Counted from the stretch's first letter, positions 4,326 through 49,955 are shown. The stretch: 53,054 nt of DNA from Rhodothermales bacterium (GCA_041589075.1 JBFHWK010000003.1:1-53054); one strand, 5' to 3'. Notes: generated from the letters alone by a model not told the origin. A program made the numbers and translations.

Positions 4326-4352
4326 ATATCGGCCAGCGATTCACGAATTTAT
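4326..4352 (-). promoter_or_regulatory. Possible sigma28-like promoter facing topA
   Basis: The minus strand reads ATAA-N15-GCCGATAT, about 170 nt upstream of the topA start. Confidence 0.35.
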
Positions 4353-4450: not shown

Positions 4451-7120
4451 ATGGCAGCGATATCAGAGAAGCTAGTCTATAAATTTGGCAACGGCACTGC
4501 CGAAGGCGGGAAGGAGATGCGTGCGCTCCTCGGCGGCAAGGGTGCGAACCTCGCCGAAATGAGCGCAACCGGCCTGCCGGTTCCGCCGGGATTTACCATC
4601 AGCACGGAGAGCTGCCGCTATTTTGATGAGCACGAAGGCTCTTGGCCGGAAGGTTTGAAGGAAGCCGTTGCCGAAGGCATCGCACATCTCGAGCAGGCGC
4701 TCGGCTTCGGATTCGGCGATCAAAACAACCCCCTCCTGGTCTCGGTGCGAAGCGGTGCCGCGGTATCGATGCCGGGCATGATGGACACCGTGCTGAACCT
4801 CGGCATCAACGACGACGTCGCCCGCGGACTGGCGCAGCGTTCAGGAAACGAACGCTTCGCGTATGACGCGTACCGGCGGTTTATCGACATGTTTGGGGAC
4901 GTGGTCATGGGCGTCGATCATGCCCATTTTGAAGAATCACTCGAAAGCCTCAAGGCGGAGGCCGGTGTCGAAAGCGACGTGGACCTGAATGGCGAACAAC
5001 TGAAGTCGCTCGTCGAACGGTACAAGGCTATCTACCGGAGACACACAGGATTTATGTTTCCCACAGACCCGTGGGAGCAACTGCACCTTTCGATCAACGC
5101 CGTTTTCAATTCCTGGAATTCTGATCGCGCGATCAAGTATCGCAGAATCAACCAGATCACGGGCCTGATCGGTACGGCCGTAAACGTCCAGGCGATGGTC
5201 TTCGGGGACATGGGCGAAACCAGCGGTACCGGTGTTTGCTTTACGCGCGACCCCTCAACCGGCGAACGCATTCTGTACGGCGAGTATCTGATTGACGCGC
5301 AAGGTGAAGACGTCGTCGCCGGGATCCGGACGCCCGAGGATATCAGCAGGCTCAAGGATCACCTTCCCGACGCGTACGCTGAACTCGTGCACTGGACGCA
5401 CGAGCTCGAGGTACACTACCAGAACATGCAGGATATCGAGTTTACGATTCAGGAAGGCACGTTATATATCTTGCAGACGCGGAGCGGAAAGCGTACGGGT
5501 ACGGCTGCGGTCAAGATTGCCGTCGACATGGTCGAAGAAGGTCTTGTCGATCCGCGGACGGCCGTCGAGAAGCTCGTCGAGCCCCGACATCTCGATCAAT
5601 TGATGCATCCGCGCTTCAAGGATCGGAAGTCTTTCCAGGACAAGGTCATCGGGAAGGGGCTGCCTGCGTCGCCGGGAGCGGCCGTCGGTGAGGCCGTATT
5701 CAGTGCGGACGATGCGGAGACGGCGAAAGAAGAAGGGCGACAAGTGATCCTGGTTCGGATCGAAACAAGTCCCGAGGATGTCGGGGGGATGCACGCGGCC
5801 GAGGGAATCGTCACATCGCGCGGCGGCATGACAAGCCATGCGGCCGTCGTGGCACGCGGTTGGGGAAAGCCGTGCGTGGCGGGCTGCGGCGATATCGTCG
5901 TGAACTACGACACGAAGGAATTCACCGACGGCCGGGTCACGGTAAAGGAAGGCGACTGGATCTCGATCGATGGATCAACAGGGCAGATCATTCTAGGCAA
6001 GCAGGAGCTGATGCAGCCGGAAGTAGGCGGCAACTTCGAGAAGTTCATGTCCTGGGTTGGAGAGTTTCAGACACTTAATGTCCGAACGAACGCGGACACG
6101 CCAGCCGATGCGGCCCGTGCGCGGTCTTTGGGTGCAGTCGGCATCGGCCTGTGTAGGACCGAGCACATGTTCTTCGAGGGTGATCGAATCACGCGAATGC
6201 GCGAGATGATCATGGCCTCCAACGAAGAAGAACGCCGCGGTGCACTGGCAAAGCTGCTGCCTTACCAGAAGGCCGACTTCATAGGCATCTTCAAGGCGAT
6301 GGACGGCTTCCCGGTAACAATCCGTCTTCTGGACCCGCCCCTGCACGAATTCCTTCCACATGAGGACGAGGAGCAGGCAGAGTTGGCTAAGGAATTCGGT
6401 ATCTCAGCGGCAGAGGTTAAAGCCAAGGTCGAGGCGCTCGCGGAACTGAATCCAATGCTCGGTCATCGCGGCTGTCGGCTGGGCGTAACGTACCCGGAGA
6501 TTACGGAGATGCAGACGCGGGCGATCATCGAGGCGGCCGTCGAGCTGGCCGGCCAAGGCGTCGAAGTGTTGCCGGAAATAATGGTCCCGCTGATCGGGAC
6601 GCTGGAAGAGTTCGAAAACCAGGCGCGCGTGATTCGCAGCACGGCCGAAAAGGTGTTCGAGGAAACGGGACGCCGCGTCGACTACCTCGTCGGTACCATG
6701 ATTGAGATTCCGCGCGCTGCTCTAACGGCTGACCGGATCGCCAAGGAAGCCGAATTCTTCTCCTTTGGCACGAACGATCTGACGCAGATGACCTTCGGAT
6801 ACAGCCGTGACGATGCTGGAAAGTTCTTACCGTATTACGTCGAGAACAAGATTCTGTCGGGTGACCCTTTCCAGACGATCGATTTCGAAGGCGTAGGGAA
6901 GCTCGTGCAGATGGGTACCGAGTTGGGTCGATCCGTCAAGCCGGACCTGAAGGTTGGCATCTGTGGTGAACACGGTGGAGATCCGGCTTCGGTCGGTTTC
7001 TGCTACCGGATTGGGATGGACTACGTTTCGTGCTCACCGTTCCGCGTGCCGATCGCGCGGTTGGCAGCCGCACAGGCGAATCTGAAGGAGCAGGAAGAGG
7101 CGGCAACCGTAGCGGCTTAG
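4451..7120 (+). CDS. ppdK: Pyruvate, phosphate dikinase
   Basis: [21 protein letters not shown], phospho-His motif [42 protein letters not shown]; 889 aa. Confidence 0.98.
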
Positions 7121-7588: not shown

Positions 7589-8845
7589 TCAGGCGCCGCT
7601 CTCCTGCCCGGCCATCTTCCGGGGCGCCTCCGCAGGTTCTGCCGCGTTGCCCAGCGGTACAAAGGACTGGATACCTGTAATCTCTCTGCCCAGAATGAGC
7701 CCATGGATATCATAGGTCCCTTCGTAGGTGTTGACACTCTCCAGATTAACCATGTGATGAACGACACGATATTCGCCCGTAATACCATTACCCCCAAGCA
7801 TGTCGCGTGCCGTCCGGGCGATCTCAAGCGCCCTCCCGCAATTGTTACGCTTTGCTAATGAAACCATAGACGGCACCGCGCGACCTTGGTCCATAAGGTT
7901 ACCCAGCCGCCACGACAGTAACTGCATCTGGGTGATATCGGTGATCATGTTAGCGAGCTTTGTCTGGATAAGCTGCATAGACGCCAGCGGATGCCCGAAC
8001 TGGCTCCTTTCCGACACATACGTGCGCGCTCGCTGATAGCAGTCTTCCGCCGCTCCAAGCGCTCCCCAGACGATCCCGTATCGGGCGCTGTTCAAACATG
8101 CGAACGGTCCTCGTAGACCCCGCACGTCCGAAAACACGTGCGTGTCCGGCACGAAGCAATCCTCCATCACGATCTCTCCCGTGATCGATGCGCGCAGCGA
8201 CATCTTGTTGTGCGTCTTGGGCGCCGACCAGCCGGGCATGTCCTTTTCGAGGACGAACCCCCGAATCACGCCGTCGTCCGCAGTACCCCGCTCCTTGGCC
8301 CAGACTACGGCAACGTCCGCGACCGGCGAGTTCGTGATCCACATCTTAGCACCGTTAAGCACCCAGCCTCCGTCTACGCGGCTTGCTGTCGAAGTCATCG
8401 AACCGGGATCCGAGCCGTGGTCCGGCTCCGTGAGACCGAAGCAGCCGATGAGTTCGCCCGTGGCCAGGCGCGGCAGAAGCCGCTGTTTCAATTCCTCCGA
8501 TCCGAATCTGTGTATGGGATACATCACCAACGACGACTGGACCGAACAAAACGAGCGGTACGCAGAGTCCACGCGCTCAAGCTCGCGCGCGATGAGTCCG
8601 TAGGCGGTGTAACTCACGCCGGAGCCTCCATACTCTGGCGGAATCGTTGCACCGAGTAATCCAAGCTCGCCCAGCTCTGCGGGAATCTCCGGATGAAAGA
8701 CTTCGTCCTGGTTGCCTTCTAATGCGCGCGGCTCAAGTCGCGTCTGAGCATACTCGCGCGCCGACTCCATGATCAGCCGATCTTCCTCAGGGAGCATCTC
8801 CTCAAAGAGAAACGCGTCGTCTTTGTTGAATACGGTCTTGGGCAT
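7589..8845 (-). CDS. gcdH: Acyl-CoA dehydrogenase, glutaryl-CoA dehydrogenase type
   Basis: YGLIARELERVDS, GCFGLTEPDHGSDP, LNGAKMWITNSP, GPFACLNSARYGI, NLESVNTYEGT. Start chosen at the ATG of MPKTVF (alternative 8857). Confidence 0.88.
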   Translation of the reverse strand: MPKTVFNKDDAFLFEEMLPEEDRLIMESAREYAQTRLEPRALEGNQDEVFHPEIPAELGELGLLGATIPPEYGGSGVSYTAYGLIARELERVDSAYRSFCSVQSSLVMYPIHRFGSEELKQRLLPRLATGELIGCFGLTEPDHGSDPGSMTSTASRVDGGWVLNGAKMWITNSPVADVAVVWAKERGTADDGVIRGFVLEKDMPGWSAPKTHNKMSLRASITGEIVMEDCFVPDTHVFSDVRGLRGPFACLNSARYGIVWGALGAAEDCYQRARTYVSERSQFGHPLASMQLIQTKLANMITDITQMQLLSWRLGNLMDQGRAVPSMVSLAKRNNCGRALEIARTARDMLGGNGITGEYRVVHHMVNLESVNTYEGTYDIHGLILGREITGIQSFVPLGNAAEPAEAPRKMAGQESGA

Positions 8846-30477: not shown

Positions 30478-33300
30478 GTGCTCGCCATCGAAGACCCGAA
30501 CAGCGCACTTTTTACGCTCGATCCCTCCAACACCGAGATCTCGGAGCCGCAAGCGCGGCAGATAAACCTCCTGATCTCCATGCTATCGGAAGTGATCGTC
30601 GAGCAGGCCGGTGCAGAACGTCTTGAGGTTGCCCGACATCTCGCCGAGCTTTGTCGACAGGCAGCCGACGGGCAAGACCAAAAGCGCGAAGAGGCGGCGG
30701 CCGTCGTGAAGCGCCTCGATCTGGACACAATCGTGGCGTTGCTTCGCTCGTATACCGCGATGTTCCATCTCCTGAATCAAACTGAAAAACAGGAGATCGT
30801 CCGCATTAACCGTGAGCGCGCCCGGGCCAGTACCGTGGAGAAGCCGAGGCCGGAGTCGATTGACGAGGCAATCGGCAAGCTGAAGCGAATGGGTCTCGAC
30901 GCAACTGAAGTCGTTGCACTTCTTGACCGCATTGACATTCAACCCACGTTCACGGCACATCCCACCGAGGCACGCAGGCGCAGCATCTTGTTCAAGCAGC
31001 AAGCCATCGCTCGCATTCTCTCACTGCTTCGCGACTGCACTCTCACACCGGCCGAAGAGGAGGACGCGATTGCGGAACTACGGCACCAGATCGCGCTCAT
31101 GTTCGCGACCGACGAGGTTCGCAGTTCGCGCATGCGCGTTGAGACCGAAGTCGAGCACGGACTTTACTTCATGCGAAACGCAGTCTGGCAGACTCTGCCG
31201 CGCATACAGTATGAGGTGCGACGAGCCCTTCGCCGTCACTACGACATCGCGGTCGATTTGAAACCGATCGTCAGGATGCGGTCGTGGATAGGCAGCGATC
31301 GCGACGGCAATCCCTTTGTCACACCGGACGTGACGCGGCACACGGCGGCGTTTCAGAGAGCGACGGTTCTCGATCTTTACCTCAGCGAGCTTCGTGAGCT
31401 CCGGCGCGAACTCAGTATATCCGACCGTCAAGCACCGATACCGGATCTTCTGCGAGACTCCTTGGCTTCGGACGAACAGGAAATCGACCTGCCGAACATT
31501 GTAATTCAACTGTATGTGCGCGAACCGTACCGGCTCAAGATCAGCTATATGATGGCACGCGTCCGGCACCTTGCCGGCGAGGAAATCGTGCCGGGGGCGG
31601 ATCGCCATGGTCCACGTGCACTATATAGCGCCAGGCGTTTTGTTCAAGACCTCGAGCTTCTGCGAGACAGTCTCAACGAGAGTGCGATCGGCGACCTGGT
31701 GAAGGCAAGCCGCCTCGAGAGTCTGCTCGACCGAGCGCGCGCATTCGGCTTCCACCTGGCGGCCCTGGACATCAGACAGCACTCCGGTGTGATCGGTCAA
31801 GCAGTAGCGGAGATGCTCTCGCTCGCGGGTGTAACCGAGCGGTACCCCGACCTTTCTGAACAGGAACGGGTGGAGATTCTCACCCGTGAACTCGTCAACC
31901 CACGCCCTCTCCTATCGACGCGCACTGTGCTTTCGGAAAGTGCTGAGAGCGTTCTCTCGACGTTCAGTGTTATACGGGAAATCGGCGACCTCGATCAAGG
32001 TGCGTTGGGTTCATACGTCGTAAGTATGACCCACGCGGTGAGCAATCTCCTTGAGGTCATGCTGCTTGGAAAGGAGGTCGGGATCTGGCGAAAGGTCGAC
32101 GGCCGCGTCGATACAATACTCGACGTCGTGCCGCTCTTCGAGACCATCGAGGATCTGGCAAAGGCTGAAGACTTCATGGACTCGCTCTTCAGCAACGAGC
32201 TTTACCGGGAGCATCTCACCTCACGCGGCAACTTGCAGGAGATCATGCTCGGTTACTCGGACAGCAACAAGGACGGCGGTTACTGGATGGCCAACTGGGC
32301 CCTCTATGGTGCGCAGGGAAGTCTGGGACGCGTATGCCGGCGCCATAACGTCGACTTCCGGCTGTTTCACGGCAGAGGCGGAACGGTCGGCCGCGGTGGC
32401 GGTCGGGCAAACCAGGCGATTCTTGCGATGCCCGCCGCATCCCAGTCGGGCCGGATACGGTTCACGGAGCAGGGTGAAGTGATCAGCTTTCGCTATTCGC
32501 TTTCAGAAATTGCGCACCGCCACCTCGAGCAGATTGCCAACGCCACGATACTTGCTACGGCATCTGCCGAGAGAGGCCTCTCGTACGAGGGTGACGAGGC
32601 CAAGGTAGATGAGGCTTTGGTGACTGGCATCGCGGACCAATCCATGGAGGCCTACCGTGCTCTGATCAACGATCCAGCGCTGTGGTACTGGTACACGCGC
32701 ACGACCCCGATCGAGCATATCAGTCGGCTTCCGATTGCTTCGAGACCCGTCTCGCGCCGGGCAGCGAACGAGGTCGACTTCGAGAGCCTGCGCGCCATCC
32801 CCTGGGTCTTCTCGTGGACACAGGTGCGGTACATCGTTCCAGGATGGTACGGAATAGGATCTGCGCTACAGGCCGCGGTCGAAGCCGGGTCGCTGCCTGA
32901 CCTCGTCCGGTCCTACCAAGACTGGCCGTTCCTGAATGCAGTGATCGACAGCGCACAGCGGGAGATGGCCCGCGCACGGCTGGCAATTGCAGGTCGGTAC
33001 GCTCGGCTCGCCGAGAAAACAGACGGCGCCCGCGATTTCCACGAGCTCATATCGGAAGACTTCCGAAAAGCGGAAGAGTGTATCCTCGCGATCACCGGGC
33101 AGCAGGAACTGCTGGACAACAGCATGGTGATCAAGCACTCAATACGATTACGGAACCCGCTGACTGACGTGCAGAATCTGCTTCAGATCGAACTTATGAA
33201 GCGTTACAGGTCTGTGTCCGATGACGATAAGGAGCGATACCGCCGTGCTTTGTTCATGAGCATCAACGGCATCGCGGCGGCGATGCAAAGTACCGGCTGA
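30478..33300 (+). CDS. ppc: Phosphoenolpyruvate carboxylase
   Basis: TAHPTE, WIGSDRDGNP, VPLFET, MLGYSDSNKDGG, FHGRGGTVGRGG, LRAIPWVF, C-terminal INGIAAAMQSTG. Confidence 0.97.
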   Translation: MLAIEDPNSALFTLDPSNTEISEPQARQINLLISMLSEVIVEQAGAERLEVARHLAELCRQAADGQDQKREEAAAVVKRLDLDTIVALLRSYTAMFHLLNQTEKQEIVRINRERARASTVEKPRPESIDEAIGKLKRMGLDATEVVALLDRIDIQPTFTAHPTEARRRSILFKQQAIARILSLLRDCTLTPAEEEDAIAELRHQIALMFATDEVRSSRMRVETEVEHGLYFMRNAVWQTLPRIQYEVRRALRRHYDIAVDLKPIVRMRSWIGSDRDGNPFVTPDVTRHTAAFQRATVLDLYLSELRELRRELSISDRQAPIPDLLRDSLASDEQEIDLPNIVIQLYVREPYRLKISYMMARVRHLAGEEIVPGADRHGPRALYSARRFVQDLELLRDSLNESAIGDLVKASRLESLLDRARAFGFHLAALDIRQHSGVIGQAVAEMLSLAGVTERYPDLSEQERVEILTRELVNPRPLLSTRTVLSESAESVLSTFSVIREIGDLDQGALGSYVVSMTHAVSNLLEVMLLGKEVGIWRKVDGRVDTILDVVPLFETIEDLAKAEDFMDSLFSNELYREHLTSRGNLQEIMLGYSDSNKDGGYWMANWALYGAQGSLGRVCRRHNVDFRLFHGRGGTVGRGGGRANQAILAMPAASQSGRIRFTEQGEVISFRYSLSEIAHRHLEQIANATILATASAERGLSYEGDEAKVDEALVTGIADQSMEAYRALINDPALWYWYTRTTPIEHISRLPIASRPVSRRAANEVDFESLRAIPWVFSWTQVRYIVPGWYGIGSALQAAVEAGSLPDLVRSYQDWPFLNAVIDSAQREMARARLAIAGRYARLAEKTDGARDFHELISEDFRKAEECILAITGQQELLDNSMVIKHSIRLRNPLTDVQNLLQIELMKRYRSVSDDDKERYRRALFMSINGIAAAMQSTG

Positions 33301-33304
33301 TCCG

Positions 33305-34033
33305 CTAAGCGGCCTTGCGATAAGACCCTCGATCCACCACGCGCTCACGCAGAGGATCCAGCGGCACGAGGCGGGCGCCGCCTTCGAAGATTTCTTCGCC
33401 GTCCGTCGCCGCAAAGATTACCGGCAGGACCCGGTCAAGCACGTAGTCGATGGCAGGCCCGGCGCCATAGTGGAGAACGAAGGATTTCACCGCGGGTAGC
33501 GACGACAGGAAGTTGTTCACCTCGATTCGCGTCGGGTCGGACGAAGCGAAAACCATTCTATGTGGGCCCTGACCCTCGTCTGGCTCGGCGCCGTGGCCTA
33601 TCGGCAGTATTCGCAACGCGGCCATCGTCCGCCACTGACGGCGGTTGAACGTAGGCCGCACCTCTTTCAGAAAAACAGTTAGGTCGGATACTGACAGATC
33701 GACTTCCACAAAGCCGTACGTACGTGCTGCCAGGGCATAGAAGGCCTCTCGGTCGGCGCCGCTACGATCGGCTACGAAACGCCAGAATCGTCCGCGTTGC
33801 GGCCGCGGCACGCGTTTGAAGGCGGCCCAGGCCTCGTCCACTTGGCGGCCGGTCACCAGGGCGCACGAGAGCGCTGCCCGTACAACCCTGTCGCGGACGG
33901 ATTCGACAGAAAGACCCGTGGCGGCTTTCGGTTCATGCGAGAAGGACCCGCCGTTGCGGGACTGGTTCGGTTCTGGCATGGCAGGCAGGTGTTTGGCGAG
34001 CGGGGCGTTTGCGTCGAGCGTTAAATCGTGCAC
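33305..34033 (-). CDS. Stand-alone paralog of the PilB/GspE N-terminal (MshEN-like) domain
   Basis: Shares RDRVV, FWR, AARTYGF, ILPI and FASSDPTR.EV with residues ~150-300 of the neighbouring ATPase. Start is GTG 34033 or ATG 33979. Confidence 0.75.
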   Translation of the reverse strand: MHDLTLDANAPLAKHLPAMPEPNQSRNGGSFSHEPKAATGLSVESVRDRVVRAALSCALVTGRQVDEAWAAFKRVPRPQRGRFWRFVADRSGADREAFYALAARTYGFVEVDLSVSDLTVFLKEVRPTFNRRQWRTMAALRILPIGHGAEPDEGQGPHRMVFASSDPTRIEVNNFLSSLPAVKSFVLHYGAGPAIDYVLDRVLPVIFAATDGEEIFEGGARLVPLDPLRERVVDRGSYRKAA

Positions 34034-34055
34034 GCAAACGGGGGCTATACTTTCA

Positions 34056-34082
34056 GTATCGGTTCCGATTCGATACGATTAA
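34056..34082 (-). promoter_or_regulatory. Sigma28 (FliA)-type promoter
   Basis: TTAA-tcgtatcgaatcgga(15)-ACCGATAC on the minus strand, just upstream of 34033. Confidence 0.65.
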
Positions 34083-34107
34083 GCACTGTTTTTCGGATCA
34101 GGAAGCC

Positions 34108-36354
34108 CTAATCGGTGATTCCGGTGACCCTGACGAGTTCTTCGACCGACGTATCTCCGATCATGACAACGCGCTTCGCGGAGTCGCGCAGGGACCGCAT
34201 GCCCTCCTCCTGGGCCTGTCGCCGGAGGCTGTCCTCGTCGATGACGTCGCCGGCGGCAAGAACGAGCTTTCTGATCTCATTGGAAAACGGAAGTGTCTCA
34301 GCAATGGCGCGACGACCTTTGTAACCCTGGCCCCCGCATACACGACAATCCGAGTTGTAGGTCGCCTGGAAGAAGCGGGTGTCCTTGATTTCATCTTTGC
34401 CAAAACCGAGGTATCCCAGCAGCTCTTTGTCGTGAGTTTTCGTCTCCTTCTTGCACCCCGGGCATAGCTTGCGCACGAGTCGTTGGGCAACGACGATGTT
34501 GATCGCGTAGGCAATAAGAAAGGGCTCGATGCCCATCTTGTAGAGTCGACTAACCGCGCTCGTCGCGTCGTTTGTATGCAACGTCGAAAACGTCAGGTGC
34601 CCAGTATTGGCCAGCTTGATAGCAAGCTCAGCAGTCTGGCGGTCGCGCATCTCACCCACCATTACTATGTCCGGGTCGTGACGCAGAATGGACCGAAGAG
34701 CACCCTCCATATCCAGACGATGGCTCAGTTTTATCTGGCGCACTCCTCTGATCAGATACTCAACCGGATCCTCAACCGTGAGCACATTAACCTTGGGCGT
34801 GATCACCTGATGCAGTGCCGCTACGAGGGTGGTACTCTTACCCGATCCCGTTGGGCCGGTGAGGATAATCATGCCGTGCGGTTGACGGATCGCCGCGTCA
34901 AATCGGCTCATTGAGTCTTCGAGCATACCCAGCTTGCCGAGATCTGTGAGGACTTTGCGGTCGTCAAGTACACGGATAACGATGCTCTCGGCGTTTACGC
35001 CGGCACGATGCGAGGCAATCGGAAGAATCGAGACGCGAAATCGAATAACGGTCTCAGCAATCCGCCTCTGAATCGCGCCGTCTTGTGCCGTGTCCCGTTC
35101 GAAGCGGTCAACATTCATCGAATTGTCCTTGATAACCGCCAGGAATGCCTCGGGGTGAATGCGCTCTTCACAATGCCACCGTACAAGCTCGCCGTCGACA
35201 CGGAAGTTGATCTCGATCTGTCCTTCAGCGTTAGGAAACACGTGGACGTCGGATGCACCCTTCTTTACGGCTTCGACGAGAGCCGCCTCGAACAGGTTGA
35301 TAAGCGACGAGCGGTTGATCTCAGCCTCAAGTGCTTCCTCGTCTATAAGCTGATTCTTCTCCTCGTAGTTCGTGCCGAGGTCATAGATGAGCGGATCGTC
35401 GTTGAGTCGATCGAGGTACTCGTTTTTTGAGAGAAACCCTTCCGTGATGAGTTCGCCGATGAACGATTCAGAGGTGTACTGCAGCTCAAATCTCTTGAGG
35501 CGAAGCTGCTGGATGAGCTTGTGCACTTCCGGACGGGTAGGATCGTGCGTCGCAAAGATCCATAGTATCTCGCCCGTGCGTCGATCCGCCTTCTGCGCGA
35601 TTGGAATGACGAACAGTTCGATCATGCGATCGAGGTGCGGTCCTTCAAACTGCTCACCAATCGCTTCGATAAAGGCCAGTGCCTCGGCATAGGCGACTTT
35701 CGCTTCCTTGAAGGCGTAGACGTCCGCCGCCTCTCGATAAATTTGCTCGCGGTCAACCCGAGGATCCAGTGTGATCACGCGCCAGAGTGGAACACGGTAC
35801 CCTTCTTTCCGCAGACGTTTCCATTCCTCGAGACTGTCGTTGAGCTGCTCCTCCGTAATGAGCTTGCCGCCAATGAGGCGTTGGACGACGCGGTCACGAA
35901 TCTTCTTCCCGCCGACGATAGCAGGCTCCTCTTCAATGTCGATCGGGTTACCGTGCGCGTCGATCGGACCCGTGTACTCCTGGTCCTCGTCGTCTTCAAA
36001 GTCTGGTTCAGATTCCTCTTCCGGCGCTTGCGACTCGGGCACCGGTTCAAACGTGGCAACCGGAGGATGGTCTTCAGCGACTAGCGACGGTGCGTGATCT
36101 GCCGTGCCGTCATGATGCGGCGTCGTCCCTTCGAAGAAGCCCCGGTCGGAGTCACTCGCTTCGGTGGACTCACTTTGTTCCTCACTGTCCGAGTCTTCTG
36201 CCAACAGGTCGCGGCCCACCTCGGGCATCTCTGCGCCGGATTCTTCAAGTTCCGCGGCTTCCGCGGTCTCAAGATCAGACTCTTCGTCCAGCAGACTGGT
36301 AATCCGACCTATCTGTGCTCGAAAGTCAAAGCGCTTGGAGGATGATGTCTTCAT
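34108..36354 (-). CDS. PilB/GspE-family assembly ATPase with an acidic N-terminal extension
   Basis: ASDVHV, FRVDG, Walker A GPTGSGKST, TVEDPVE, LRHDPDIVMVGEMRD, TGHLTFSTLHTN, Zn site CPGC/CRVC and GYKGR. Confidence 0.93.
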   Translation of the reverse strand: MKTSSSKRFDFRAQIGRITSLLDEESDLETAEAAELEESGAEMPEVGRDLLAEDSDSEEQSESTEASDSDRGFFEGTTPHHDGTADHAPSLVAEDHPPVATFEPVPESQAPEEESEPDFEDDEDQEYTGPIDAHGNPIDIEEEPAIVGGKKIRDRVVQRLIGGKLITEEQLNDSLEEWKRLRKEGYRVPLWRVITLDPRVDREQIYREAADVYAFKEAKVAYAEALAFIEAIGEQFEGPHLDRMIELFVIPIAQKADRRTGEILWIFATHDPTRPEVHKLIQQLRLKRFELQYTSESFIGELITEGFLSKNEYLDRLNDDPLIYDLGTNYEEKNQLIDEEALEAEINRSSLINLFEAALVEAVKKGASDVHVFPNAEGQIEINFRVDGELVRWHCEERIHPEAFLAVIKDNSMNVDRFERDTAQDGAIQRRIAETVIRFRVSILPIASHRAGVNAESIVIRVLDDRKVLTDLGKLGMLEDSMSRFDAAIRQPHGMIILTGPTGSGKSTTLVAALHQVITPKVNVLTVEDPVEYLIRGVRQIKLSHRLDMEGALRSILRHDPDIVMVGEMRDRQTAELAIKLANTGHLTFSTLHTNDATSAVSRLYKMGIEPFLIAYAINIVVAQRLVRKLCPGCKKETKTHDKELLGYLGFGKDEIKDTRFFQATYNSDCRVCGGQGYKGRRAIAETLPFSNEIRKLVLAAGDVIDEDSLRRQAQEEGMRSLRDSAKRVVMIGDTSVEELVRVTGITD

Positions 36355-36489
36355 GGAGGGTGCGCAGCAAAGGTCAGCGGGCGAGCAAGGGCACGAAGGA
36401 GCGGTCGATGGTCGGATTGGCGGATAGGTCTAGTGCCCAGCCACGTCGCCGCCGAGACACGGTGGGGCCGGGCTGTGGACACCACTCGT

Positions 36490-36516
36490 ATATCGGCGGA
36501 ATGCAAGCCGAATTAA
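36490..36516 (-). promoter_or_regulatory. Sigma28 (FliA)-type promoter for the PilB/GspE gene
   Basis: TTAA-ttcggcttgcattcc(15)-GCCGATAT on the minus strand. Confidence 0.7.
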
Positions 36517-36585
36517 GCCATATCGGTGTGTCGGACAACACGACAACCACGCGTTGGAAGGCCCCAATTCCGGCTCGTCTTGCTA

Positions 36586-36612
36586 TTAATTATCGGTCAT
36601 GTGTGCCGATAA
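36586..36612 (+). promoter_or_regulatory. Sigma28 (FliA)-type promoter
   Basis: TTAA-ttatcggtcatgtgt(15)-GCCGATAA, with a perfect -10 box, about 50 nt upstream of ATG 36664. Confidence 0.72.
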
Positions 36613-36663
36613 AACCTGTACGTGTGCCGCAATACGGCGGACCACAGAAACCTTGATCCCGCC

Positions 36664-37104
36664 ATGATGGAGAGCATTGTCGTTGAAGCCATTCGCCAGT
36701 TCCCGGCCCTGGTGCTCGCCGGTTCCGCATTCTATTTCTATCGCCTGTCGAAAAAGGCCGCGAGTGTTTCGAAGCCCACTCCTGCCCTCCCCGAGGGCAT
36801 TTTGGACGAACTGCGCTCCGCTGTCGAGGCAACCGGTAGCCTCGAGCAACAACTTTCGGACCTGAGCCGCCGGATCGAGGATGTCGAAACCGACAAGCAG
36901 CACCTCGAGGAATCGGAGGAGAGTATCCGGTCGCAACTATCGAATCAGAAGATGGCTCTGAAGGAGTTTGGACGTGTATTATCGAAGACGTCCGAGCAGA
37001 CGTACACCGATTTCAACGCTTTCGAAGAGCGCCTTGGACGCATCGAGGAATCGCTGAACGAACGTGGCATGCTGAACGGCGAGAGCCGATCGGCGGCCGC
37101 CTGA
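36664..37104 (+). CDS. Membrane-anchored coiled-coil hypothetical protein
   Basis: N-terminal hydrophobic helix (FPALVLAGSAFYFY) followed by heptad-rich helices. Confidence 0.7.
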   Translation: MMESIVVEAIRQFPALVLAGSAFYFYRLSKKAASVSKPTPALPEGILDELRSAVEATGSLEQQLSDLSRRIEDVETDKQHLEESEESIRSQLSNQKMALKEFGRVLSKTSEQTYTDFNAFEERLGRIEESLNERGMLNGESRSAAA

Positions 37105-37124
37105 AAAAGCCCGTAGAAGTCACG

Positions 37125-37159
37125 AATCGGGTCCGCTACACAGCGGACCCGATTTTTTT
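37125..37159 (+). terminator. Rho-independent terminator
   Basis: 13-bp perfect stem AATCGGGTCCGCT-acac-AGCGGACCCGATT followed by a T run, 20 nt after the stop at 37104. Confidence 0.88.
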
Positions 37160-37291
37160 ACACCTGCCTCCATCGGGCTTCAGAGACGACGCGCGGTTAC
37201 AACCAACGACACACTTATCTTCCAGGCGTGACGGGCGCGCAGAGGCAACTGCCCTGACCGATCCAGCACACACTTCGTACTGTAGGTCTTC

Positions 37292-37990
37292 TTAGGCGGC
37301 CCGGCGCCTCCGCGGCTCCGCATCGCGCAGCCTGATCGGTATCGGAAGATGTCCGAGCACGTACCGGCGGTACCACCACAGCGAGTGTACGTACGCAAAC
37401 CGAGTGCACGACTTGATCACAGCGAACATGTACGATGGCGAGAGAAACTTCACGCGCACTGACTCTCCGGCTACGGCCCTGACGAGTTCGCGAACACGAG
37501 GATTTGCCGGGTCGAATGAGACATACGTCCACCGAACGCCGCCCTCAAGGGCATCGTTGGTTTCGCGGATCGGGAATATGCCGTTCTCCACAAGGAGGTG
37601 CCACTGACGATCCGAGATCTGCGAGCGACTCCACGACGCGAGTATCTGTGAACCCACAATGGAGACGTTCGCTTCGTCAAACGCATACGTCCGGGCCGCG
37701 CATCTAAAAACTGCCGCACTGTCAACTCCTTGCACATCGGCAAGGACACGCCATAGTGGCCTCGGGTCCTGTCTGTCCTGTTGGTAGACCCAAGCACTTT
37801 CGATCTGAATGACCTCCACAAGGCGCCGTTGAAGCAGGGTGCGCACGACGCGGTCCCGCTTTATGGCGCTCTCCAGCGAGACGCTGCGGATGACGCGTAG
37901 GCCATTCTCCTGCTGGCGATGACGCTTGGTGGAACCGAAGAGGCGGACAGCGAGTGACCCTTCACGGCCCTTTCGTCTGGCGAATCCCAT
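37292..37990 (-). CDS. Second stand-alone paralog of the PilB/GspE N-terminal (MshEN-like) domain
   Basis: RDRVV, PLWRV, AARTYAF, IFPI and W.YVSFDP. ATG 37990 chosen because the ORF-track start (38062) lies inside the promoter. Confidence 0.72.
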   Translation of the reverse strand: MGFARRKGREGSLAVRLFGSTKRHRQQENGLRVIRSVSLESAIKRDRVVRTLLQRRLVEVIQIESAWVYQQDRQDPRPLWRVLADVQGVDSAAVFRCAARTYAFDEANVSIVGSQILASWSRSQISDRQWHLLVENGIFPIRETNDALEGGVRWTYVSFDPANPRVRELVRAVAGESVRVKFLSPSYMFAVIKSCTRFAYVHSLWWYRRYVLGHLPIPIRLRDAEPRRRRAA

Positions 37991-38052
37991 TTGCGCGGCG
38001 ACAGTTCTTTCAGCGGTTGCGAATCCGACGCTTGCACGTCGATCTACGGAAC

Positions 38053-38079
38053 GTATCGGCACGGGTTCGACTGCGTTAA
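38053..38079 (-). promoter_or_regulatory. Sigma28 (FliA)-type promoter
   Basis: TTAA-cgcagtcgaacccgt(15)-GCCGATAC on the minus strand, about 60 nt upstream of ATG 37990. Confidence 0.7.
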
Positions 38080-38121
38080 CCGTTGCCGGATGCCCAAGCG
38101 GATCCTATCATGCAATTCGCG

Positions 38122-38871
38122 ATGAGACACACACAGTCACAGGTGCCGATCGAGTATACCCAGACGTTCCGGATGCGCGCGTACGAGGCCGGCGTACATG
38201 GTCGCCTGTCGATGGGCGCACTGTGTAACTATCTACAGGAGGCAGCGGCTGAACACGCTGCTCAGCTCGGTTTCGGGACGGCGTATTTCGCACCCCTGGG
38301 CCAATCCTGGGTCCTCCACCGCCTCCGTATCGAACTGACCGGACTTCCGACGTGGCCTGACGATGTGACCGTGTACACGTGGCCGTCCGGCACCGAGGCC
38401 GTGCGCGCAACACGTGAGTTTTTGGTGTCTGCTCCGAGTTGCGGCGAGTTCGCACGGGTAACGAGCGTCTGGCTACTCCTAGATATGGAGCGTCGGCGGC
38501 CCGTGAGAATGCCCGCGCATCTCCGGCAATTACAACCTCTGAATACGGAGCGAGCCGTCGAACTTCACGAGCCACCCGTACCTCCCGACACGGAGGGCAC
38601 GACGGATGAACGGAAAGTGTACCACAGCGATCTCGACGCGAACGGTCACGTCAACAATGTTCGGATTGCTACATGGATCACGGATAGTGCACGTCCCGAT
38701 CCGACATGGCAGCCCCGGCAGATCGACATCGTCTTTCAAAAAGAAGTTCTTCCCGGTCGCGTCGTCCGGATTCAGACCGCACACTCGACGGGCGAGAAAT
38801 GTTTTCGTCATGCGTTGTCGACTTCGGAAGACGGAATTCTTGCCCTTGCCGAAACTGTCTGGTCCGACTAG
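38122..38871 (+). CDS. Acyl-ACP thioesterase (double hotdog fold)
   Basis: LQEAAAEHA..LG, WVL.RL, TWP, S.W.LLD..RRP, DLDANGHVNN. The start could be 38110. Confidence 0.88.
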   Translation: MRHTQSQVPIEYTQTFRMRAYEAGVHGRLSMGALCNYLQEAAAEHAAQLGFGTAYFAPLGQSWVLHRLRIELTGLPTWPDDVTVYTWPSGTEAVRATREFLVSAPSCGEFARVTSVWLLLDMERRRPVRMPAHLRQLQPLNTERAVELHEPPVPPDTEGTTDERKVYHSDLDANGHVNNVRIATWITDSARPDPTWQPRQIDIVFQKEVLPGRVVRIQTAHSTGEKCFRHALSTSEDGILALAETVWSD

Positions 38872-48645: not shown

Positions 48646-49665
48646 CTACAGCATTATGCCGATGCCGGCAGACACTGTGTTCAGCGATCCGAGCGCATAG
48701 TCGACGTTGATCTGGATCGGACCCGGCGTCAAGCTAACACCCGCGAGTGCACGAAAGCGGTTCTTGGCCTGCTGCGAGAAGTTGATTGCCTGCGGTTCCA
48801 TTTCGGGCTGGCCGCTGTCGAACACATAGTTGACGTCAACCTGCGTCTTCTCAATCTGCAGTCCCCCGTAGACGGTCACTACCGGCAGCGACTTTGAGAC
48901 CGCGACGTTACCCGCATACGCTGAGGCCAGCAACATTCGATTGTCGGCACCGTCATCGATCGTCAGACGCTGATATACAAACTGAGCCGAGATATCTGCC
49001 GGTAAAAGCGGGAAGTACTGACTGATGCTGTGACGCACACCGAAACCCTTGAACGAGATCGACCCGTAAGACTCCGTGTTCACGGTCGGAAGGAATCGAA
49101 CCAGAATGTCGGTACCTGCAAATGATCCAATGCCCACCTGGGGGATGACCAGAGGTGCCACCGGCGTATTGACCAAACCCGGCAGCAGCTGCATCGAGAC
49201 AACGTCGTTGATGACGATATCGTCTGCGGTGCCCGGCTCACCGTCAGGGCCGGCGTCGACCATCTCGTTGACCGAGACGGACACTTCACCGGCTTCGGTC
49301 TCACCGAAGACGGTCGGTGCATCTTCAATGTTGTACGTGACCGGCACGACATATCGGATTCCGTTTCCGTCTACGTACACCTCCTCGGTCTCGTACGCCA
49401 GCGAGAGGGAACGATCACTGGGCAACATCGCACCAAACACCTTCACACCTAAGTAGAGGTCAATCTTGGGGATGAGGCCGCCGCCGATCTTGGCGGTCTG
49501 GAAAAGTCCGGCATTGATATTAGCACCGTAAGCATCGATCAGCGGTGCCACGTAGAGCTTTGAGTATTCATCGGATACCGCCGACAGGTTCGTGGTCAGG
49601 GACTGCGCGCCGGCCGACACAACCACGAAAAATGATGCTGCAAAGAAGACGCGAAATCGGTTCAT
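48646..49665 (-). CDS. Outer-membrane protein, DUF6588-like
   Basis: Signal peptide, N.GLFQTAK, PQVGIG..GTDI.VRFLP, GFGVRHSISQY, VYGG, C-terminal beta strand. Confidence 0.7.
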   Translation of the reverse strand: MNRFRVFFAASFFVVVSAGAQSLTTNLSAVSDEYSKLYVAPLIDAYGANINAGLFQTAKIGGGLIPKIDLYLGVKVFGAMLPSDRSLSLAYETEEVYVDGNGIRYVVPVTYNIEDAPTVFGETEAGEVSVSVNEMVDAGPDGEPGTADDIVINDVVSMQLLPGLVNTPVAPLVIPQVGIGSFAGTDILVRFLPTVNTESYGSISFKGFGVRHSISQYFPLLPADISAQFVYQRLTIDDGADNRMLLASAYAGNVAVSKSLPVVTVYGGLQIEKTQVDVNYVFDSGQPEMEPQAINFSQQAKNRFRALAGVSLTPGPIQINVDYALGSLNTVSAGIGIML

Positions 49666-49955
49666 CGTACTCGGTGGGAAATAGTAATGGGGGGCCATTC
49701 CAGTGATTTATCGGCCCTGTCCGAGTGATTTAAAGGCGTAGGCCGCGCATTGGCCCGTGCATGCAGCTGAGACGCGGTAACGTCCTCGATTGGGTACAGC
49801 CAGGTGCGGCGTGAACACGTGCGTACGGGCGAGCAGGACCAGGTGACGGGCCACAAACGGTCGATTACCGTTGGCCTACGGTGGCCGTGGCTCGGATCGA
49901 AATTTGCTCCAAACGGGTAGTATCAGATACTCCCTTGGAACAACCGTCCCCTTTC

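Follow-up and report, generated by a model that had tools for sequence, protein, structure and literature searches.

We looked at the promoters of a type IV filament gene cluster in a 53,054-base stretch of DNA from a Rhodothermales bacterium, called the window below. The window is contig C3 of a metagenome-assembled genome (MAG) of 3.75 Mb in 500 contigs (59.4% G+C, 94% complete, 0.9% contamination). The cluster surrounds a gene for an assembly ATPase of the PilB/GspE type, and the closest PilB-like loci among public genomes were those of other Rhodothermales, in agreement with the lineage supposed in the first-pass annotation. Each of four adjacent genes was found behind a predicted promoter of the sigma28 (FliA/SigD/WhiG) type. 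The genes and sites, numbered from the first base of the window and with lengths in amino acids (aa) or nucleotides (nt), are the following:

33305..34033, minus strand: stand-alone protein of 242 aa with a predicted MshEN/GSPII fold, paralogous to the N-terminal part of the adjacent ATPase
34057..34082, minus strand: predicted sigma28-type promoter TTAA-N15-ACCGATA of the 242-aa gene; exact match, intergenic, 23 nt 5' of the start codon
34108..36354, minus strand: type IV filament assembly ATPase resembling PilB and GspE, 748 aa long and extended at its N-terminus by an acidic segment (Pfam T2SSE, 340.5 bits)
36491..36516, minus strand: predicted sigma28-type promoter TTAA-N15-GCCGATA of the ATPase gene; exact match, 136 nt before the start
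36586..36611, plus strand: predicted sigma28-type promoter TTAA-N15-GCCGATA of the divergent 146-aa gene; exact match, 52 nt before the ATG at 36664
36664..37104, plus strand: small protein of 146 aa, read as an N-terminal hydrophobic helix followed by a coiled-coil
37292..37990, minus strand: protein of 232 aa, the other free-standing paralog of the ATPase N-domain (by BLASTP)
38054..38079, minus strand: predicted sigma28-type promoter TTAA-N15-GCCGATA of the 232-aa gene; exact match, 63 nt before the ATG at 37990

The pattern TTAA-N15-RCCGATA matched exactly four times in the window. Over 100 dinucleotide-preserving shuffles of the window the mean was 0.01 matches and the maximum 1, none of the shuffles reaching four. 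Relaxing the pattern to TWAA and to any base before CCGATA gave no extra site (0.04 expected). All four sites were intergenic and pointed at a gene start, as judged both from our own gene calls and from the list of open reading frames (ORFs). The first-pass annotation of this stretch had described four sites of equal spacing, one for each gene of the PilB cluster, and had placed them correctly, its intervals including one more base of an 8-nt -10 box; its description of them as intergenic and facing their genes agreed with both gene lists, and its estimate of well under 0.1 chance matches was borne out by the shuffles. The promoters of the ATPase gene and of the 146-aa gene form a divergent pair 70 nt apart. 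That of the 242-aa gene begins 26 nt past the ATPase stop codon with no terminator in between, so this gene can probably be expressed both by read-through from the ATPase gene and independently. The 15-nt spacers of the sites share no sequence, and a repeat or mobile element as the source of the sites was ruled out because spacers and flanks are unrelated. When positions 33000-38600 were scanned with a sigma70-type consensus, to which Bacteroidota-type primary promoters do not conform, no sigma70-like site was found facing any of the four genes; the only intergenic one, at 38083-38111 on the plus strand, faces a thioesterase gene.

Next, we looked at the motif across the whole genome, in which a simple self-trained codon model called 3,183 genes (88.5% coding, 11.5% intergenic). 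TTAA-Nn-RCCGATA had 14 matches with a spacer of 15 and 5 with a spacer of 16, and none or one at each spacer of 10-14 and 17-20, and the TAAA version had its maximum, 6 matches, at a spacer of 16. The relaxed pattern T[TA]AA-N15/16-RCCGATA gave 25 distinct sites, among them two inside called genes (C109:410 and C473:556), which are counted here and omitted from the list of targets. Although intergenic DNA makes up only 11.5% of the genome, 23 of the 25 sites were intergenic (binomial 6e-20). A called gene start within 300 nt was faced by 19 of these 23, and of the sites at which just one of the two orientations would point at a gene, 10 were so oriented and 1 was not. Three of the four 'orphan' sites faced ORFs that the caller had missed, namely an NlpC/P60 lipoprotein (Pfam 107.6 bits), a secreted protein of 145 aa, and a leader RNA followed by a 49-aa peptide; downstream of the fourth, at a distance of 429 nt, is a TerC gene. 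All 23 intergenic sites had CCGATA as their -10, followed by C or A in 22. With one mismatch allowed, a spacer of 15 gave 56 sites (37 intergenic, 33 oriented) and a spacer of 16 gave 54 (25 intergenic, 20 oriented), and control spacers of 11-13 and 18-20 gave 17-21 sites, of which 1-5 were intergenic.

Coincidence, with an AT-rich/CG word clustering by chance between genes, had to be considered, the pattern having been defined after it was seen. The shuffles, the dependence on spacing and the bias in placement and orientation effectively refute it, the conservation of sites in other genomes described below also speaks against it, and the post hoc definition is no longer a worry because of that spacing specificity, the bias in placement and orientation, and the conservation. 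With its CGA-centred -10, its fixed spacer of about 15-16 nt and a cognate sigma gene in the same genome, the motif has the attributes expected of a sigma28 promoter, with TTAA in place of TAAA, and we read it as such.

This sigma gene lies at C36:15624-16385 and encodes a FliA/WhiG-family protein of 253 aa. It scored 199.8 bits against the TIGR02479 model (cut-off 189.6) and was the sole protein to pass, the next-best match being the primary sigma factor; scores with the NCBIfam SigF models were far under their cut-off in this genome. Flagellin, FlhA, rod proteins, FliG and methyl-accepting chemotaxis proteins (MCPs) were not found in this 94%-complete, 500-contig MAG, and the same searches were positive in flagellated control genomes. 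FlgM (PF04316), a short and divergent family, likewise gave nothing at E<=0.1 in this incomplete genome and was found in the flagellated controls. Among six relatives of the same family, FlhA was not found in five and the sigma was kept in five. The sigma shares 81-93% identity with the copies of its own family, most of whose members are non-flagellated, and 72-78% with the FliA of the flagellated genomes G039, G002, G011 and G019, where a single copy lies beside FlhA. A maximum-likelihood tree, built from 41 copies and an outgroup, placed it in the starred clade with copies of the non-flagellated families f1 and f5 and the single FlhA-adjacent copy of G019, the base of the tree being without resolution. 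Identity and phylogeny thus suggest that the sigma is orthologous to the FliA encoded in the flagellar clusters of related genomes, and the simplest reading would be that a flagellar FliA was retained after the loss of the flagellum.

Two FliA-family genes, one diverged and beside FlhA and the other elsewhere, are present in many flagellated Rhodothermales (G016, G031, G033, G045, G064, G068, G080, G114, G129 and G135; loci L128-L147), and the two types form separate clades with supports of 82/82 and 100/100. Because of these two copies, the idea that the sigma descends from a separate non-flagellar paralog was considered; it was not supported, as the tree, within the limits of its base, and the highest identities favour the single-copy FlhA-adjacent FliA. 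Directly upstream of fliA in the source genome, at L012:15323-15574 on the plus strand, is an ORF of 83 aa with two hydrophobic helices, which had no family match and which keeps its place upstream of fliA in the non-flagellated families as well as in three flagellated genomes with a single copy. A one-mismatch site, TTAT-N16-GCCGATA, lies at L012:15195-15221, before the unit formed by the 83-aa ORF and fliA. Because this site is of the sigma28 type, it suggests an autoregulated two-gene unit.

To compare the occurrence of the motif with that of the sigma, 151 Rhodothermales genomes of many families, all at least 90% complete, were searched for the FliA model, FlhA, the exact motif and a reversed-pattern control. 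The sigma was called present at a best E of 3e-43 or better, the next value being 5e-38. Motif and control counts were:

Sigma and FlhA present: 70 genomes, motif 445, control 39
Sigma present, FlhA not found: 31 genomes, motif 125, control 37
Neither sigma nor FlhA found: 49 genomes, motif 25, control 60
FlhA only: 1 genome, motif 5, control 1

The motif was thus enriched only in genomes with a FliA-family sigma. In three of three flagellated relatives examined, the motif was also found upstream of flagellin genes (4 of 7), as TTAA-N15/16-G(C/A)CGATA or GCCGAAA, 84-173 nt before the gene. In flagellated G019 it adjoins the flagellar cluster and also stands directly upstream of a PilB-like gene and of a gene for a 475-aa ATPase; because of this genome, FliA-type pilus promoters are not confined to non-flagellated species.

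These comparisons bear on whether the promoter could be read by another alternative sigma factor, of the extracytoplasmic function (ECF) class or another of group 3, instead of the FliA homolog. The genome does contain several further sigma-like matches, an ECF sigma gene behind a one-mismatch site, and an unrelated ECF-like promoter motif. However, that motif (CTGAA-N16/17-TCCGTCC) is quite unlike the one studied here, which is nearly the textbook sigma28 consensus as given in PMC8325347 (-35 TAAA; -10 GCCGATAA). Together with the single protein passing the FliA/WhiG model, the motif at the flagellin genes of relatives, and the counts of 570 against 76 in the 101 genomes with a FliA homolog and 25 against 60 in the 49 with neither FliA nor FlhA, this makes another sigma factor very improbable as the reader of the four sites.

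The first-pass annotation had made its sigma28 proposal depend on a sigma28-family gene being present and on the motif not being randomly oriented across the genome; the gene was found, and placement and orientation are both biased. It had left a choice between a late flagellar and a repurposed FliA/WhiG-like regulon, of which the repurposed one fits and the late flagellar one does not, no flagellar or chemoreceptor genes having been found. The TTAA -35 box that it had taken as lineage-specific proved to be the normal FliA box of the order, as at the flagellin genes of the three relatives, and is not peculiar to this cluster. Where it had suggested looking for fliA and flgM, fliA was present and flgM gave no match; where it had suggested fliC and chemotaxis genes as carriers of the motif, this held for the flagellin genes of relatives, with no flagellin or MCP gene found in the source genome itself.

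We also looked at whether the sites were kept in related loci. The three closest genomes (L024-L026; PilB 71-76% identical) keep three of the four window promoters in position, the 232-aa-gene promoter falling outside this comparison where the relatives' contigs end or lack the site. Counterparts of the 242-aa-gene promoter are at L024:5688, L025:3731 and L026:6385. In the ATPase promoter, TTAA and CGATA were invariant between the window and L024-L026, the rest of the alignment being 59% identical, and the relatives read GTCGATA. The divergent promoter of the 146-aa gene has a counterpart in L024, L025, L026 and L027 with a spacer of 14-15. More widely, 80 PilB-like loci (666 kb) contained 30 exact matches to the relaxed pattern, 29 of them on the strand of the gene. 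A gene-strand site with at most one mismatch lay between -700 and +100 in 22 of the 69 Rhodothermales PilB-like loci with at least 700 nt upstream; an opposite-strand site was present in 6 of the same loci and an equal control window inside the gene had none.

Besides the four window genes, exact sites of the source genome precede the gene for a second PilB-like ATPase of 640 aa, which lies on C36 at 4 kb from the sigma gene. On C29 one stands before a pilin-like gene that has another such gene and PilC downstream, and on C413 one stands before a third pilin-like gene. Others stand before genes for two S8 subtilases, a DUF4382 lipoprotein, a DUF7305-like protein, a HAMP-PAS kinase, a hybrid kinase of 1,536 aa, a PAS-GGDEF-EAL protein, the NlpC/P60 wall hydrolase and several proteins of no assigned family. 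One-mismatch sites alone were found before a third ATPase (460 aa, C174), a second DUF7305 protein, a third subtilase, M23 peptidases, an amidase, a STAS protein, the ECF sigma and further kinases. None of the annotated targets is flagellar.

The sites might instead serve as operators to which a regulatory protein binds, or be inert relics from a flagellar regulon that has disappeared. Relics are conceivable since the flagellum has apparently been lost, and the case for promoters is itself built on sequence. Typical dimeric operators, however, are unlike these sites, which are asymmetric, have a fixed spacer of 15 or 16 nt and are oriented towards genes as promoters are. Relics would be expected to decay, yet sites are kept upstream of PilB-like genes in many Rhodothermales while their flanks have diverged; the sigma gene is intact and well conserved within the family, and the targets are all non-flagellar. 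Operators or relics are consequently a very improbable explanation.

We consider it likely that the four sites are working promoters of the FliA/WhiG-family sigma encoded at C36:15624-16385, kept after the loss of the flagellum to serve a filament, secretion and wall programme. RNA polymerase carrying this single sigma would bind the -35 TTAA and the -10 GCCGATA, 15 or sometimes 16 bases apart, and transcription would begin a few bases downstream of the -10. Each of the four adjacent genes would thereby have its own start, allowing separate control of the ATPase, of the two free MshEN-type N-domain paralogs and of the membrane coiled-coil protein. We infer from the predicted targets that the ex-flagellar sigma would switch a programme of type IV surface filaments, secreted proteases, cell-wall remodelling and signalling. 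The free MshEN-fold proteins could act in it as decoys, adaptors or sensors of cyclic di-GMP (c-di-GMP).

Several points weigh against this proposal. Promoter use, start sites and dependence on the sigma are deduced from sequence alone, and the gene calls come from our own crude caller. The presence of the sigma in other genomes was scored by our own E-value gap, the curated cut-off being passed by only 75 of the 151, and these genomes are related and hence not independent samples. Genome G027, of the same family, has the sigma without enrichment of the exact motif (2 against 2). Flagellar loss is deduced from the non-detection of five flagellar markers and MCPs in a 500-contig, 94%-complete MAG and from the failure to find FlhA in five of the six same-family relatives, and the FlgM search turned up no anti-sigma factor in it. 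Finally, one-mismatch sites before ValRS, TopA and FtsH are probable noise, that is, false positives in the list.

The protein products of the cluster were then compared with known families. The 748-aa ATPase belongs to the T2SSE superfamily by its Pfam score and falls below both equivalog cut-offs (384.7 against 675.65 for PilB, TIGR02538; 385.4 against 630.25 for GspE, TIGR02533); a phmmer search of its N-terminal 351 aa against Protein Data Bank (PDB) sequences had 0 matches at E<=1. The 242-aa protein matched ATPase residues 136-293 (BLASTP E 4e-17), and the 232-aa protein, with an ortholog at L025:60-536, matched ATPase residues 153-303 (E 4e-14) and the 242-aa protein (E 3e-16). Neither gave anything with Pfam or NCBIfam, in the case of Pfam even at E<=5. 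An AlphaFold2 (AF2) model of the 242-aa protein built on 42 aligned sequences had a mean predicted local distance difference test score (pLDDT) of 80.4, with its core above 90. Among the 17 Foldseek matches seen within ranks 1-19, all were N-domains of pilus or secretion ATPases; they include 5htl, 9gl5, 7lkm, 8pdk and 2d27, with a probability of 1.00 and target-normalised TM-scores of 0.50-0.72. MshE-N with c-di-GMP (5htl) matched at E 8.6e-4 with a probability of 1.00, and the others comprised Thermus PilF GSPII domains, a Xanthomonas PilB-N/PilZ complex and XpsE-N. Both small proteins are thus predicted to have the MshEN/GSPII (T2SSE_N) fold, the 242-aa one by its model and the 232-aa one through its BLASTP match to the former. 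The ATPase and 'putative modulators' of the first-pass annotation were therefore a fair description, the two modulators being stand-alone copies of the ATPase N-domain. The 146-aa protein had only sub-threshold Pfam matches of the coiled-coil type, to COG3_N and EzrA.

Control of type IV pili by sigma28-family factors is already known, and what the evidence supports as new is its predicted occurrence in a phylum far from the Actinomycetota. The closest precedent by analogy is WhiG of Rubrobacter radiotolerans, a flagellar-clade sigma whose promoters were mapped within the type IV pilus cluster and upstream of diguanylate cyclase and phosphodiesterase genes (PMC8325347). Predicted links between WhiG and pili extend to several actinobacterial families, with a flagellar-cluster clade and a second clade (PMC12871210). 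The two FliA clades of flagellated Rhodothermales resemble the WhiG1/WhiG2 split of the Actinomycetota in the latter report. The statement of the first-pass annotation that pilus genes are not typically driven by sigma28 is fair as a generality, but these precedents are published. As in Rubrobacter, a flagellar-clade sigma is here tied to pili, the motif preceding pilus ATPase, pilin and PAS-GGDEF-EAL genes. Unlike there, the host belongs to the Rhodothermales and not to the Actinomycetota, the -35 is TTAA, subtilases and wall hydrolases are in the predicted regulon, and the sigma appears orthologous to the flagellar-cluster FliA of relatives; the Rubrobacter start sites were mapped, whereas the promoters here are known as sequence matches only. 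The anti-sigma factor RsiG is described as limited to Actinomycetota (PMC12871210).

The sites share with the class 3 promoters of E. coli FliA and B. subtilis SigD the GCCGATA core of the -10, the spacer of about 15 nt and the sigma family, and in flagellated Rhodothermales also flagellin as a target. They differ in having TTAA instead of TAAA, and in that flagellar, chemoreceptor and FlgM genes were not found in the source genome, because of which the secretion-coupled FlgM checkpoint would be inoperative here. B. subtilis SigD also controls autolysins (PMC3865298), which is paralleled here by the NlpC/P60 target and, with one-mismatch sites only, by the M23 and amidase genes. In Synechocystis PCC 6803, SigF, a group 3 sigma, recognises the promoter of the pilin gene pilA1, which was called a novel type, and autoregulates (PMC2532724). 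Pilin genes carry the motif here too, and a one-mismatch site stands before the fliA unit, but unlike the SigF promoter this one looks like a classical sigma28 promoter, and the SigF models scored far below cut-off. WhiG-like flagellar sigmas of Actinoplanes missouriensis, a flagellated organism with four paralogs, direct pilus and flagellar genes (PMC8325347, PMC12871210). This recalls flagellated G019, with the motif by its flagellar cluster and before two pilus-type ATPase genes, and differs from the source genome, which has one sigma copy and no flagellar genes found. We found no publication linking FliA or sigma28 to pili in Rhodothermales in a search that covered journals outside subscription. 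The comparison of the 151 genomes gives good support to the view that in Rhodothermales the flagellar sigma commonly outlives the flagellum. The results provide a regulon map of about 25 strong predicted promoters for an uncultured lineage, and TTAA-N15/16-GCCGATA offers a simple rule for locating putative FliA targets in the order.

A wider picture can be drawn only speculatively, and we doubt that it holds as a whole. FliA would be the master switch of atypical type IV filaments in flagellum-less Rhodothermales (31 of the 101 sigma-keeping genomes), made of Met-Gly pilins without a prepilin peptidase. Their ATPase would be tuned by free MshEN domains with FliA promoters of their own, possibly c-di-GMP sensors or decoys, and secreted subtilases would be expressed along with it from mRNAs that carry a new, strongly covarying riboswitch-like leader. 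In place of the flagellar export checkpoint, the sigma would have a new partner to control it, for instance the conserved 83-aa membrane protein with two helices. This draws attention to little-studied parts, namely free-standing MshEN domains, leaderless pilins without prepilin peptidase, the subtilase leader RNA and the small membrane protein beside fliA.

The pilin-fold genes of the source genome are:

L011:16322-16765 (C29): pilin-fold gene
L011:16912-17322 (C29): pilin-fold gene
L021:2002-2439 (C413): pilin-fold gene

Their N-terminus is nearly invariant across 40 homologs, in a family of 2,158 detected proteins. The AF2 model (pLDDT 91.2) has a helix at residues 3-55 (53 residues) lying on a five-stranded sheet. 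In the wide VIA-align search, rows 1-12 were all pilins or pseudopilins, the best matches being 4noa (Z 9.2, root-mean-square deviation (rmsd) 2.4, 87 aligned) and 6xxd (Z 8.6, rmsd 4.5, 115 aligned). These proteins are thus modelled with a type IV pilin fold, a long N-terminal hydrophobic helix on a small beta-sheet. Plain Foldseek against PDB had no match at E<=0.001 with the same model, and the proteins matched nothing in Pfam or NCBIfam, with the limit at E<=5. Signal peptides of class III are cleaved by an A24 prepilin peptidase and have Gly at -1 and usually Glu at +5. The N-terminus here reads Met-Gly-Gln-Gln-Gln-Leu, with neither a charged leader nor a Glu at +5. The A24 prepilin peptidase (PF01478) was not found in the source genome (94% complete); of the 61 Rhodothermales genomes searched, made up of the source genome and 60 relatives with a completeness of at least 95%, only 8 had it. 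The pilins may thus mature without a prepilin peptidase. A secretin is encoded at C20:77-577.

A conserved structured leader RNA of about 115-135 nt was found in eight copies in the source genome, upstream of six S8 subtilase genes, one DUF7305-like gene and one 49-aa peptide:

C4:43041-43172, plus strand (L006:4041-4172): leader RNA
C4:4406-4541, minus strand: leader RNA
C4:1626-1741, minus strand: leader RNA
C103:8169-8304, plus strand: leader RNA
C56:878-1007, plus strand: leader RNA
C56:3133-3267, plus strand: leader RNA
C18:13504-13617, minus strand: leader RNA
C387:1-106, plus strand: leader RNA

A covariance model of it detected 26 copies in 5 of the 61 Rhodothermales genomes. Pairing holds for 94.6% of the cells in the model-fitted alignment, against 73% when shuffled and about 40% with slid partners, and 23 of 33 pairs show double changes. 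Rfam had no match to the leader, with nothing at E<=5 on it in L014, and at the gathering score no family in the window, L006, L014 or L016. The leader is a candidate for a new cis-regulatory RNA. In 10 of the 26 copies, 2-3 nt separate the end of a sigma28-type -10 box from the conserved 5' edge of the RNA downstream, and because of this distance these sites are placed as promoters should be. Copies without a sigma28 site mostly carry CTGAA-N16/17-(A)TCCGTCC at the same distance, within the 60 nt upstream (for example L189 on C18 and L192 at C4:1626-1741), which looks like an ECF-sigma promoter.

Three other features were seen in the window:

37128..37159, plus strand: intrinsic-terminator-like hairpin at the end of the 146-aa gene unit, with a 9-bp G+C stem and a 6-nt loop followed by an A and seven T
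49709..49734, minus strand: candidate with one mismatch, TTTA-N15-GCCGATA, situated 10 nt upstream of a DUF6588 gene (48646-49698)
4327-4352, minus strand: one-mismatch site ATAA-N15-GCCGATA, 173 nt before topA

The hairpin was read by eye from the sequence and was not listed by the consensus scan. The candidate at 49709-49734 is weaker and possibly belongs to the same regulon as the four window promoters, and the site before topA is probably noise. On C103, a further PilB-like ATPase of 751 aa, cut by the contig end (L016:8-2263), heads six unannotated genes reaching to 9506, with an internal one-mismatch sigma28 site at 4950 and an exact one at 8141; this run is probably another filament gene cluster. 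Finally, a gene for a protein of 806 aa that ends in a GvpL/GvpF gas-vesicle domain (L111:742-3162; C32:15016-17436) stands behind a one-mismatch site, TTAT-N15-GCCGATA.

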